A stretch of DNA of 64,000 nt from a virus (Duplodnaviria > Heunggongvirae > Uroviricota > Caudoviricetes): IMG/VR virus record IMGVR_UViG_2690316311_000019; one strand, 5' to 3'. How positions within the stretch are numbered: the stretch's first letter is position 1; the number at the start of each line of letters is the position of its first letter. The notes beneath the pieces were generated by a model, which saw only the letters and a program-made list of their open reading frames with translations, made no database searches and was not told the DNA's origin. Made by a program: the position numbers and the translations under genes. Positions 17,673 through 61,024 of this stretch are shown piece by piece.

Positions 17673-17722
17673 TAGATTGCTCTAATCTGGAGTCACCTGG
17701 CGTTTTCAGTTTGAGGTCGGAG

Positions 17723-17968
17723 ATGCAATCTGATTTTTTACAGTTAGCGATCGCTTTTGCAGGATATGTTTGTATTGGCTTCTGTGTATACATGATCAGC
17801 CGAAAAATGCTTGTCGATATCGACCGCAAAGAACAAGCAGAGGAGATCTTAGTATGGATTTTCTTTGGCGCGGTCTGGCCATTAGGGATCATGTTTGCTG
17901 CAACATTTCTTCTGATGTGGATATTCACCCTTCCAGGTGATTTCTATAGAAAAAAAGCCAGACATTGA
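17723..17968 (+). CDS. Small membrane protein
   Basis: About 81 aa with two hydrophobic segments; GAGG RBS before ATG at 17723. Confidence 0.4.
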   Translation: MQSDFLQLAIAFAGYVCIGFCVYMISRKMLVDIDRKEQAEEILVWIFFGAVWPLGIMFAATFLLMWIFTLPGDFYRKKARH

Positions 17969-18091
17969 TACAATCGTTGCGGGTGCTTGAGGCTATCTGC
18001 TTCAGGCATTACCCGAAAAGCAGATAGAAGAAAGCCCCAGATAACATTACGCGTCCTGCAAGACGCTTAACATTAATCTGAGGCCACATCT

Positions 18092-18298
18092 ATGCTTAGC
18101 ATACGTAGATTAGCCTCTTACCGACCAAAAGGTCAAGGAGAAGCAGGCTATGAAGCAGCAAAAAGCGATGTTAATCGCTCTGATCGTCATCTGTTTAACC
18201 GTCATTGTGACGGCACTGGTAACGAGGAAAGACCTCTGCGAGGTACGAATCCGAACCGGCCAGACGGAGGTCACTGTCTTCACAGCCTACGAATCTGA
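18092..18298 (+). CDS. mok-like overlapping reading frame of the hok-type locus
   Basis: 68-aa ORF in a different frame overlapping almost the whole hok-like gene, as in hok/mok loci. Confidence 0.35.
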   Translation: MLSIRRLASYRPKGQGEAGYEAAKSDVNRSDRHLFNRHCDGTGNEERPLRGTNPNRPDGGHCLHSLRI

Positions 18299-18305
18299 AA
18301 GGTAA
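18150..18305 (+). CDS. hok: Hok/Gef-family type I toxin
   Basis: 51-aa MKQQKAMLIALIVICLTVIVTALVTRKDLCEVRIRTGQTEVTVFTAYESER matches Hok signature (TRKSLCEIRYRDG..EVAAFMAYES); GGAG RBS. Confidence 0.8.
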   Translation: MKQQKAMLIALIVICLTVIVTALVTRKDLCEVRIRTGQTEVTVFTAYESER

Positions 18306-18312
18306 GAGACCT

Positions 18313-18332
18313 GGCGGGGAGAGATCCCCGCC
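18313..18332 (+). other. Stem-loop at the 3' end of the hok-like mRNA
   Basis: GGCGGGG-AGAGAT-CCCCGCC hairpin directly after the hok stop. Confidence 0.35.
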
Positions 18333-18378
18333 ACTCTTCGTGTGTCAGGTATCCTCAATGCACCCTTTCCTCTCCAAA

Positions 18379-18400
18379 TAAAAAAGCTCCCGAAGGAGCT
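18379..18400 (-). terminator. Rho-independent terminator after the leftward virion operon
   Basis: AGCTCC-CGAA-GGAGCT hairpin followed by a T-run on the minus strand, just downstream of the gene ending at 18422. Confidence 0.5.
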
Positions 18401-18421
18401 TTAAAATACAAGGGATTACTA

Positions 18422-23874: not shown

Positions 23875-23968
23875 CAAGGTGAAATCGTGGCGATTTCACC
23901 TTGAAATTTTAGATGGATTTACTTTAAAAACAGTAGGTTAATAGTGAAATTTGAATGGCGAAAGTTTA
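23875..23968. other. parS: P1-type parS centromere
   Basis: Immediately downstream of parB: heptamer ATTTCAC/GTGAAAT boxes and hexamer TCGCCA/TGGCGA boxes (palindrome GGTGAAATCGTGGCGATTTCACC at 23878-23900; second box pair at 23945-23961) separated by an AT-rich putative IHF site. Confidence 0.6.
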
Positions 23969-24967
23969 AGGCTTCGGCTTTTTATCGAGGCTCTTTCTAA
24001 GGATATGCCCAATCATCCTGTCGAGTTCTTCCTGTAGCTCTTTTGAAAGTCGATTAAACTCATAAGAAAATGCACGGCCTTTCACGCGCTTCCTTGCAAA
24101 GCGATCCTTGTCCTCAAATTTCCATAATTCAGTAACTACGGACTTATCTTTAGAACCTTTATCCGTGAGTAGTGAGGCTTCCTTTGTTATCAAGCGCAGG
24201 ATTTTATTTTTAACTTCATCTTCGGCCATTTCTTCAATGGATAAGATGTCGTTTATTTCCGGGGATATGTTTTGAATAAGCTGATCAAACTCTAAATTCT
24301 TGTTCCCCATTTCGTCGCCAACAGCACAAAGCGTTTTGTAGTCCGAAAAGGTTAATTCCGACTGCACAGGGAAAAGGGCGACTAATTCTTCCGGAGCACT
24401 CGCTGCCTGGAGAGCACGCGTGACCTTAGCCTGAGACAGCCCTTCTTTGGCTGCAATATCCTTCTGACTCATCCCATCATTTTTCATTCGCATCAAACGC
24501 AGACCTATTTCTCGAATGCTGTGCTGCAATGCTGTCTGAACGTCTTTCGCTAAATTTTGCGCTTCCTGAACGCTGATCTCCTGGTCCGTGACTAAAACCC
24601 GCAACCCTACGTTCTCTAAGATGGCAGAAGCTCGACGCCGGGAACCATCCAAAATTTCAATTTTCCCTGTACCCCGTCTAACACCTATTGCAGGGTAAAA
24701 TTGCTGATGCTTAATAGTGCTTCGGATACTTTTTAATGATTTTGGCGTAAGAGATGCCTGGTCACGCCCGTTGTTATGCTGATCAACAAAGGTATCGCTT
24801 TCTACCTGGTTCGGAGGTATTACCTCTTCAATAAATGTGGCCTGGCGACCAGTTGATAACTTGAATACCTGCTCGACTCGATCGCCAGAGGCTGAAGAAC
24901 TATCAAATCCGCTTAATATTGAAGGATTAAGGGTTCGCCCAATTGTTGGTCTGTTTTTCTTTGACAT
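23966..24967 (-). CDS. parB: Partition protein ParB
   Basis: 333-aa ORF directly downstream of parA; ParB-like HTH region; P1 ParB-like length. Confidence 0.85.
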   Translation of the reverse strand: MSKKNRPTIGRTLNPSILSGFDSSSASGDRVEQVFKLSTGRQATFIEEVIPPNQVESDTFVDQHNNGRDQASLTPKSLKSIRSTIKHQQFYPAIGVRRGTGKIEILDGSRRRASAILENVGLRVLVTDQEISVQEAQNLAKDVQTALQHSIREIGLRLMRMKNDGMSQKDIAAKEGLSQAKVTRALQAASAPEELVALFPVQSELTFSDYKTLCAVGDEMGNKNLEFDQLIQNISPEINDILSIEEMAEDEVKNKILRLITKEASLLTDKGSKDKSVVTELWKFEDKDRFARKRVKGRAFSYEFNRLSKELQEELDRMIGHILRKSLDKKPKP

Positions 24968-24983: not shown

Positions 24984-26180
24984 TCAGTTAGATCTGATAA
25001 ATTCAATACGGTCAAAAACTGCTTTAGCAAAATCTTCCGCGGCAATTCGCGCGTTCTTCAATGCATCAGCACTACCAACATACGTTGCCGGGTTAGCTGA
25101 AATAACAGTGTCAAAAGACTCGCCGCAACGTTCAAAACCGTCAAGGCGAGGGAGGACGACATCGAGCATATCCCCACCGAACACTTCTTTAGCCAGGCTA
25201 TGGCAATACTTATGATCTGCCTTGTTACTCAACTTGGACATAAAACCAATGTTAGTCGCAAGCTGGCACTCGCAGCCTTCATCCGAAATGAGTTTCACCA
25301 ACTCAGGAAGGCGGGCAACGTATTTAAGCGATGAGTGGAAATCGACAGTTGCTGGCGGCAGAGGTGTAAACAGTATATTGGCCGAGGCCAAAGCATTTTT
25401 CAGGAAGGCGTCAAGGTGAGGACCACTATCAACGAGGATAAAGTCATAATCGCTCTTCAGCTTATCAATCACATTTTCTTTCAGGACAGCATGGATGTTC
25501 TGACCCGGTAGATGCTCATTGCACAGCTCTCTCCAATCGGATGCAATAAAGGCATCGTCAATCGACGCAGGCATAACGTCAACCCCAGGTACAACAGAAG
25601 GAACAATAAACTCCTCTAACAGCTCTTCACGGCTTACATTCTGCAACATAGCCTGTGCAGATGTTGCGTTTACGATACCAATAGAGTGTTTATGGCTTAA
25701 AAACATCGTTGCTGAAGATTGCGGATCAAGGTCAATAACCAGAATCCTTAAATCTTCCATCAGAAGATGAGGGTGAGCACGCATTGCATGCGCCAGAGAA
25801 ACCGTCGATACAGTTTTTGACACACCGCCTTTAAGATTGGAGATGAAAATCACATACGCTTCGCTGTAGCGATCCCGGTATTTTGGCACTCCGCGATGTT
25901 CATATATGTCAATGATGTTCTGAATTGACATCGCATATTTCATTGAAGAGCCAGCAGGGCGTTTATCGAAAACATAACCCTTTTCTTCCATTTCACTTAC
26001 GGCATAGTCAACGTTCGCTCGAGTCAGTAGAGGCAATTTTGCCAGTGCCGCTTTCGCATAGACCTGGTAAAACTCGTTCGCGTGTAGCTCATCCTTTTGC
26101 AACTGTACTTGTTCAGTCAGAACATTGAGCATTCTGTTTGCTCTTTGAGCAACCTTGTGAAGCTGGCTGGAATCACTCAT
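24984..26180 (-). CDS. parA: Partition ATPase ParA (type Ia, with N-terminal regulatory domain)
   Basis: 398-aa ORF; deviant Walker A NLKGGVSKT, long N-terminal extension. Confidence 0.9.
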   Translation of the reverse strand: MSDSSQLHKVAQRANRMLNVLTEQVQLQKDELHANEFYQVYAKAALAKLPLLTRANVDYAVSEMEEKGYVFDKRPAGSSMKYAMSIQNIIDIYEHRGVPKYRDRYSEAYVIFISNLKGGVSKTVSTVSLAHAMRAHPHLLMEDLRILVIDLDPQSSATMFLSHKHSIGIVNATSAQAMLQNVSREELLEEFIVPSVVPGVDVMPASIDDAFIASDWRELCNEHLPGQNIHAVLKENVIDKLKSDYDFILVDSGPHLDAFLKNALASANILFTPLPPATVDFHSSLKYVARLPELVKLISDEGCECQLATNIGFMSKLSNKADHKYCHSLAKEVFGGDMLDVVLPRLDGFERCGESFDTVISANPATYVGSADALKNARIAAEDFAKAVFDRIEFIRSN

Positions 26181-35924: not shown

Positions 35925-36011
35925 GGGGAGTTAGTCCGTAGGGGTAGCGGGGTAGACTGTAAATCTACTGTCATTGCGACTCGGGTGGTTCGACTCCATC
36001 ACTCCCCACCA
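35925..36011 (+). tRNA. tRNA-like element with Tyr (GTA) anticodon loop and long variable arm; non-canonical D-arm region
   Basis: Acceptor GGGGAGT/ACTCCCC, anticodon arm GTAGA-CTGTAAA-TCTAC, T-arm GGTGG-TTCGACT-CCATC, CCA; four nt instead of two between acceptor and D-stem. Confidence 0.35.
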
Positions 36012-60422: not shown

Positions 60423-60644
60423 ATGCAATCCATTAACTTCCGTACCGCGCGTGGCAACCTTTCTGAAGTGCTTAACAATGTTGAAGCCGGGGAAGAGGTT
60501 GAAATCACCCGCAGAGGCCGTGAGCCAGCAGTAATTGTCAGCAAGGCTACTTTCGAAGCCTACAAAAAAGCGGCGCTGGATGCTGAATTTGCATCCCTGT
60601 TTGACACCCTGGACTCCACCAACAAGGAACTGGTTAACCGATAA
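60423..60644 (+). CDS. phd: Phd antitoxin (Phd/YefM family)
   Basis: 73-aa [39 protein letters not shown]; palindrome GTGTACAC in the promoter region; coupled to doc. Confidence 0.85.
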
Positions 60645-61024
60645 TGAGGCATATATCACCGGAAGAACTTATTGCGCTTCATGATGCGAATATAAGCCGC
60701 TACGGCGGCCTGCCGGGAATGTCAGATCCGGGTAGGGCAGAGGCCATTATCGGGAGAGTTCAGGCCAGAGTTGCCTACGAAGAGATCACCGACCTTTTCG
60801 AAGTCTCCGCCACCTACCTGGTGGCTACGGCGAGAGGGCATATATTCAATGATGCCAATAAGCGTACCGCGCTAAACAGTGCGCTGTTATTTCTACGCCG
60901 TAACGGGGTGCAGGTATTTGATTCACCTGAACTGGCAGACCTTACCGTAGGGGCTGCGACTGGCGAGATATCTGTATCTTCTGTCGCCGCCACGTTACGT
61001 AGATTGTATGGTTCTGCGGAGTAG
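60644..61024 (+). CDS. doc: Doc toxin (Fic-fold kinase)
   Basis: 126-aa ORF with the Doc/Fic motif [12 protein letters not shown]. Confidence 0.9.

Follow-up and report, generated by a model that had tools for sequence, protein, structure and literature searches.

The locus at positions 17947-18402 of the window, the 64,000-nt stretch of viral DNA analysed here, is very probably a complete, intact and ordinary hok/mok/sok type I toxin–antitoxin locus of the hokW/hokD subgroup. All of its sequence elements are present, intact and conserved, and the fold of its mRNA is backed by covariation. It departs nowhere from the definition of the hok/sok family; the kind of locus is already known, and this copy is already annotated. 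The element that carries it is a P1-like (Punavirus) plasmid prophage, and the nearest relative that has been tested is hokW-sokW of the Stx phage Sp5/933W. Since hok/sok is a textbook system, and hundreds of public records of P1-like plasmids and phages already list the copy as HokD or MokW, it means little as a discovery. Nevertheless, the reference P1 carries the minority allele at the repL-bplB site, and about 80% of natural P1-like plasmids in PLSDB possess what would be a fast type I addiction module beside the slower phd-doc. This is relevant both to the persistence of resistance-spreading P1-like phage-plasmids and to attempts at curing P1-like plasmids.

The hok toxin gene and the mok frame

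The hok toxin gene (18150-18305, plus strand) encodes 51 amino acids from ATG to TAA and is preceded by the Shine–Dalgarno sequence AAGGAG at 18135-18140. The original prediction had assigned its product to the Hok family, and the protein is indeed a full-length Hok/Gef toxin according to Pfam. It matches PF01848 (HOK_GEF) with 78.7 bits (2.4e-22; cut-off 22 bits) over 42 of the 42 model positions, and phrog_251 (“MokW-like host killing”) with 4.9e-32, while the NCBIfam Hok models scored under their cut-offs (49.5 bits against 73 and 38.1 against 89). The toxin is 92% identical to HokW, 92% to Rac Hok and 43% to R1 Hok. Rather than being disrupted, conserved Hok residues are retained, with 20 residues invariant between the window protein and R1 Hok, HokW and Rac Hok. 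Taken together, Pfam, Rfam and covariation rule out a chance open reading frame.

The mok reading frame (18092-18298, plus strand; 68 aa) overlaps hok in a different frame, as had been proposed. Its Shine–Dalgarno sequence GAGG (18080-18083) lies 8 nt before the ATG at 18092. The frame is co-linear with the annotated mokW of phage 933W and mok of Rac; in this co-linear alignment the mokW start corresponds to window position 18092, and hokW of 933W spans 18150-18305. The mok product matches phrog_37205, and a Pfam search of mok, the upstream ORF81 and the flanking tail genes returned no match.

Putative promoter, leader and 3′ elements of the hok mRNA

A consensus scan placed a hok promoter-like site at 17947-17974 (plus strand), composed of the −35 hexamer TAGAAA (17947-17952), a 16-nt spacer and the TG-extended −10 hexamer TACAAT (17969-17974). 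The −10 hexamer has TAGAAT as its aligned counterpart in the hok loci of 933W and Rac, and the TG motif is overlapped by the stop codon of ORF81 (17966-17968). The predicted 5′ end of the hok mRNA is formed by tac (17981-17992, plus strand; GGGTGCTTGAGG), which would pair in the full-length transcript with its complement fbi (18353-18365, plus strand; CCTCAATGCACCC). The two elements are complementary at 12 of 13 nt and are paired in the minimum-energy fold (17981-17992 with 18353-18365). Homology to other hok loci stops at fbi.

The leader stem (17993-18027, plus strand) consists of an inverted repeat, CTATCTGCTT (17993-18002) and AAGCAGATAG (18018-18027). This 10-bp repeat had been noticed beforehand and proves to be perfect; by a rough estimate, about 0.02 perfect 10-mer inverted repeats with such short spacing are expected by chance in a 480-bp region. 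It corresponds to the conserved helix adjoining tac, whose pairs form in 94.7% of cells in an alignment of 38 hok loci, with compensatory changes in four of the ten pairs. Further downstream, ucb (18115-18122, plus strand; CTCTTACC) is a perfect 8-bp complement of dcb (18301-18308, plus strand; GGTAAGAG), which overlaps the hok stop codon; these elements would pair with one another in the full-length mRNA. Next to ucb, the motif TAGCCTC (18111-18117) is complementary over 7 nt to GAGGCTA of the tac region (17989-17995).

Stable hairpins downstream of hok, also anticipated, are found at two places. The first (18312-18333, plus strand; TGGCGGGGA-GAGA-TCCCCGCCA) has a 9-bp GC-rich stem and, by analogy with R1, would form the 3′ end of the processed, active mRNA. 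The second (18383-18402; AAAGCTCC-CGAA-GGAGCTTT), detected by a scan, belongs to the P1 backbone, where it serves as the bplB terminator on the minus strand; reference P1 has an identical hairpin between bplB and pmgF. Being the only terminator-like structure 3′ of fbi, it may also end the hok mRNA, a reading that we keep conditional because only three U follow the stem on the plus strand.

The leader is recognised by the Rfam model RF01794 (‘sok’) with 114.8 bits at 17981-18155 of the plus strand, almost twice the gathering score of 59, and the match begins at tac. The match falls on the plus strand because the model was built in the hok-mRNA sense, with a consensus that ends at the hok AUG. 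It therefore certifies a conserved leader, not the direction of transcription, and was rejected as proof of an antisense Sok RNA. Although named ‘sok antitoxin’, RF01794 reports the strand opposite to the real Sok RNA, so that automated annotation with this model would put sok on the wrong strand. Rfam matches to ceN48, CRISPR-DR46 and sbrA in the region were far under their gathering scores and were dismissed.

The predicted Sok antisense RNA

An antisense Sok-like RNA had been expected opposite the mok start, and the annotated SokW RNA of phage 933W maps to window positions 18100→18030 in a co-linear alignment. The Sok RNA predicted there (minus strand, about 71 nt) begins at its 5′ end with 15 single-stranded nt, continues with a long terminator hairpin (18085→18033) and ends in a stretch rich in U. 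It would span, as their complement, both the mok Shine–Dalgarno sequence and the mok start codon, and its predicted fold reaches −29.1 kcal/mol (z = −4.8). The sokW RNA has been detected and acts as an antitoxin (PMC8621323).

The putative Sok promoter was located by homology to sokW and R1 together with conservation. This promoter-like site (18107..18136, minus strand) comprises the −35 hexamer TTGACC (18136→18131), an 18-nt spacer and the −10 hexamer TAATCT (18112→18107), with a predicted +1 at 18100, which is also the mapped 5′ end of SokW. The original prediction had pointed to 18040-18120 as the place for a minus-strand promoter; promoter-like hexamers do exist, and their position has to be shifted slightly further right, to 18107-18136. 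The TTG of the −35 hexamer and the A2 and T6 of the −10 hexamer are invariant in 38 of 38 aligned hok loci. The consensus promoter scan listed the hok promoter-like site and not the Sok site, because the −10 hexamer TAATCT matches at only three of six positions.

Fold of the mRNA and covariation

The full-length transcript (17981-18405) is predicted to fold with −168.7 kcal/mol (z = −8.75 against dinucleotide shuffles), with tac-fbi and ucb-dcb both paired. A scan of one genome per species gave 79 hok loci. In the 39 non-identical loci with a tac core, a strong complement to the opening 12 nt of the mRNA lies at a fairly constant distance, 340-389 nt further downstream; a GGGUGC start is accompanied by GCACCC, and a GGCGC start by GCGCC. 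The fourth tac-fbi pair switches in step, being U-A in 24 and C-G in 14 of 38 loci.

The minimum-energy structure of the window was mapped onto an alignment of 38 hok loci from Escherichia, Kluyvera, Enterobacter, Buttiauxella and others, and controls were made by sliding the 3′ partners by 1-3 columns. A standard pair is formed in 81.7% of cells, compared with 38-44% in the slid controls, a percentage inflated because the structure comes from a member of the alignment itself. Changes on both sides of a pair, which are less affected by this, number 46, compared with 18-31 in the controls. The covariation score is 0.187, compared with 0.06-0.07. The tac-fbi pairing, the inverted-repeat stem, the Sok-terminator stem, the ucb-dcb pairing and the 3′ hairpin are each supported by covariation in the 38 loci; the ucb-dcb helix (helix 11) pairs in 80.9% of cells, and four pairs of the 3′ hairpin (helix 22) show compensatory changes.

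In the predicted fold of a 3′-truncated RNA (17981-18337), the 5′ end refolds into a local hairpin. The segment at about 18100-18113, just 3′ of the mok ATG and opposite the Sok 5′ end, is then unpaired, and the ATG itself stays paired; in the full-length fold, the same segment pairs with one just upstream of fbi. According to Thisted et al. 1994, as cited in PMC10899753, Sok and the 3′ end of the mRNA compete for the mok initiation region, which agrees with this pairing in the full-length fold. The tac-ucb helix of the R1 model is absent from the minimum-energy fold of the 3′-truncated mRNA, its counterpart being only the 7-nt complementarity of GAGGCTA and TAGCCTC.

Relation to known hok systems

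The hokW-mokW-sokW locus comes from the lambdoid Stx2 phage Sp5/933W of E. coli O157:H7. Its DNA is about 87-88% identical to the window over 17969-18365, its mok/hok/Sok layout is the same, and its tac and fbi (GGGUGC and GCACCC) match those of the window in type. hokW-sokW is a proven type I toxin–antitoxin system, in which the toxic HokW is neutralised by sokW and which needs RNase III and Hfq; after induction it speeds lysis and doubles phage release (PMC8621323). The two loci differ in their settings, as 933W/Sp5 is an integrated lambdoid phage whereas the window is a P1-type plasmid prophage. They differ also in the −35 region of hok and in the terminator, and the Sok −35 hexamer is TTGACC with an 18-nt spacer in the window and TTGCCT with a 17-nt spacer in sokW. 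Moreover, the 5′ tail of the window Sok and its target differ from those of SokW at several positions, which makes cross-protection doubtful.

A comparison with plasmid R1 hok/sok had also been proposed, and the architectures prove to be alike, even though the Hok proteins are only 43% identical. The R1/IncF locus (parB) shares with the window tac, the leader stem, Sok opposite the mok start, ucb/dcb, the 3′ hairpin and fbi. It likewise resides on low-copy plasmids and acts there as an addiction module. In contrast to R1, the leader of the window is about 20-25 nt shorter, and the tac-fbi helix has U-A where R1 has C-G.

A further relative, K-12 HokD (relF, Qin prophage), has almost the same protein sequence as the window toxin, at 96% identity, and several 96%-identical Hok genes occur at chromosomal sites in E. 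coli and Shigella. The PGAP name HokD follows from this near-identity of the proteins and expresses protein similarity only. In three of the chromosomal 96%-identical copies (L020-L022), no tac motif was found within 215 nt upstream. Pedersen and Gerdes reportedly described hokD in 1999 as leaderless, without mok and sok, and the tac-less copies fit that description. The window copy is different from this hokD/relF-type leaderless state, as its leader, mok and Sok are complete.

The P1-like setting and the repL-bplB interval

The flanks of the locus are 96-99% identical to P1. In addition, the window holds 11 C1 operator cores (1.45 expected by chance), C4 RNA and C4 targets, and repA. It also carries phd (60423-60641) and doc (60644-61021), together with parB (23966-24967, minus strand), parA (24984-26180, minus strand) and the parS core (23879-23900). 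Both the proposed P1-like backbone and the count of at least three maintenance systems are thereby upheld, since the sequences of phd-doc, parA-parB-parS and hok/sok are all present. A separate observation concerns the tRNA genes: an 87-nt tRNA-Tyr (GUA) gene at 35925-36011 (plus strand), between tRNA-Asn and tRNA-Thr, is the fourth tRNA gene of the window, and reference P1 presumably has only three (Asn, Thr and Ile).

The interval between repL and bplB that holds the hok/sok locus is variable. The window is homologous to P1 up to 17686, where a C1 operator core ends, and again from 18380 onwards, where the bplB terminator hairpin lies. Both reference P1 (NC_005856) and P7 have these flanks, formed by repL plus the C1 operator core to the left and by the bplB hairpin to the right. 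Between them, reference P1 has rlfA-rlfB-pmgF (about 1.8 kb), whereas the window has ORF81 and hok/sok (about 0.7 kb, 17687-18379). This agrees with the earlier remark that a hok locus is not known at this position in P1. Lambdoid hok loci are homologous to the window only over 17969-18365, from the −10 hexamer to fbi, so the −35 region and terminator of hok come from the P1 setting.

ORF81 (17723-17968, plus strand; 81 aa) belongs to phrog_3772, a family of unknown function, and is found only in P1-like phages. Its protein looks, by eye, to hold two hydrophobic helices, and the version of phage SJ46 is 44% identical. The left junction with reference P1 lies directly after the C1 operator core ATTGCTCTAAT (window 17676-17692), at the position of the P1 operator Op55/Orlf, of whose 17 bp only the first 11 remain. 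C1 could still control ORF81 and, through read-through, perhaps hok. At the right-hand boundary of the interval, the hairpin AAAGCTCC-CGAA-GGAGCTTT is kept in all alleles (window 18383-18402; P1 L002 4013-4040). It seems to be a fixed recombination boundary as well as the bplB terminator, and is probably the hok terminator in the window allele.

Three other P1-like phages, vB_EcoM-673R5 (L008 2458-2700), RCS47 (L007 3540-3890) and SJ46 (L009 2981-3320), keep ORF81 and the hok leader (window 17853-18115). Their leader remnants reach window positions 18112-18115 and include tac, the leader stem, the Sok body and the Sok −10 hexamer, with mok and hok missing. Each remnant is abutted by a minus-strand gene of 171-210 aa without a Pfam match, and in RCS47 ORF81 is cut by ISEc46. 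These toxin-less remnants suggest that hok/sok is old at the repL-bplB site. The Sok remnants retained there might serve, for example, in anti-addiction or as a borrowed terminator.

Proposed mechanism and role

We infer the transcription, processing, toxicity and biological role of the window locus by analogy, and the mechanism proposed here is modelled on two homologous systems, hok/sok of plasmid R1 and hokW-sokW of Sp5. Transcription from a weak promoter (−10 at 17969-17974) would yield a stable hok mRNA from about 17981. In the full-length RNA, tac would pair with fbi and ucb with dcb, and the mok start region would pair just upstream of fbi; with its ends paired in this manner, the mRNA would be neither translated nor bound by Sok. 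Slow 3′ trimming to the hairpin at 18312-18333 would then remove fbi and free the mok start region. As long as the plasmid is present, the short-lived Sok (18100→18030) would pair with the mok Shine–Dalgarno sequence and start codon, thereby blocking the translation of mok, and hence of hok, and the duplex would be destroyed. If the plasmid is lost, or Sok is otherwise gone, Sok would decay first, Mok and Hok would be translated, and Hok, a small inner-membrane protein, would kill the cell.

The most likely role, by analogy, is post-segregational killing as a backup to parABS and phd-doc. In single-cell assays, segregants that lack the plasmid are killed by R1 hok-sok as well as by P1 phd-doc; Hok takes effect within about 30 min, type II systems after hours (PMC10899753). 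Still, where phd-doc is already present, a low-copy plasmid may profit little from another addiction system. A second role compatible with post-segregational killing would be to assist lysis once the prophage is induced, as hokW-sokW is known to do.

That help with lysis or induction is the main role, and not addiction, is possible but doubtful. Hok would in that case permeabilise the membrane early, so that more phage is released, and Sok would vanish after induction or be swamped by sense read-through from the C1-controlled kilA-repL operon and ORF81. In the tested relative, mitomycin C makes sokW disappear, HokW is seen about 1 h ahead of the endolysin, and loss of hokW-sokW halves the phage yield (PMC8621323). 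The layout of the window is consistent with such a role as well: the module stands directly downstream of repL, a C1 operator core lies at 17676-17686 with only a weak terminator-like hairpin (17925-17940) between it and hok, and the ORF81 stop codon overlaps the −10 region of hok. However, laboratory P1 and P7 lyse well without the module, and the element is kept as a plasmid, the setting in which hok/sok addiction was first shown; the two roles do not exclude one another.

A related proposal, which we consider rather unlikely, is that hok/sok in P1-like phage-plasmids is wired to the lytic switch, instead of or besides plasmid loss. The locus stands immediately 3′ of the C1-repressed kilA-repL operon and ORF81, with the C1 operator core before ORF81. 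Upon induction, read-through would overload the locus with hok-sense RNA and run head-on into the convergently oriented Sok promoter, and Hok would be released early as an accessory lysis or abortive factor. If this were true, laboratory P1 and P7, which lack the module, would be atypical models for the maintenance and lysis of natural P1-like elements.

Phage exclusion by abortive infection is a quite improbable main role. It assumes that shut-off of host transcription lets Sok decay, so that Hok kills the cell before progeny mature. R1 hok/sok is said to exclude T4, a finding attributed to Pecota and Wood in 1996, but the effect reported for R1 is modest. The repL-bplB interval is also a swap site whose cargo differs in P1, RCS47, SJ46 and 673R5, and variable sites are typical of defence hotspots.

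Finally, it is very unlikely that the locus is an inactive relic carried without function, of the kind that most hok loci on the E. coli K-12 chromosome represent. Inactivation is reportedly common among hok loci, and 673R5, RCS47 and SJ46 have lost mok and hok and kept the leader only, so loss is tolerated. Here, however, hok and mok are full length, tac complements fbi and ucb complements dcb, the hexamers of the Sok promoter have been retained, the Rfam match scores nearly double the threshold, the locus is free of IS elements, and it is near-identical in 415 plasmids. Pedersen and Gerdes are said to have found in 1999 that many chromosomal hok loci are inactive, so an intact sequence is no proof of activity.

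Frequency and existing annotation

PLSDB contains 507 records with P1 repL. The 521-bp hok locus, counted with both junctions included and a coverage of at least 80%, occurs in 415 records, and the reference-P1 allele rlfA-rlfB-pmgF in 99. The hok allele is the common one, found in roughly four fifths of P1-like plasmids in PLSDB. The original prediction of a hok locus inside a P1-like backbone was correct, with the nuance that the locus is nothing peculiar to the present element: most natural P1-like plasmids carry it. Hundreds of plasmids of 90-100 kb share the 521-bp locus with at least 99% identity, which argues for purifying selection or recent spread. The complete locus is also present in six phage records, including vB_EcoM-Ro157c2YLVW, phi456 and three named P1.

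The existing names are not uniform: PGAP calls the plasmid toxin HokD, and MH422554 names the same gene MokW. In the literature on hok in P1-like elements, only a passing mention was found. A 2026 preprint mentions type I and type II toxin–antitoxin modules on the P1-like plasmid of an O111:H8 strain (PMC13596339).

Near-identical enterobacterial hok loci additionally occur in assemblies labelled Veillonella, Acinetobacter, Xanthomonas, Streptomyces, Ferruginibacter and Oscillibacter (L013, L023, L038, L077-L079). These loci are probably contamination or mis-binned contigs. The contigs concerned are mostly short, from 275 bp to about 5 kb, and the one labelled Veillonella is a scaffold of 22.9 kb.
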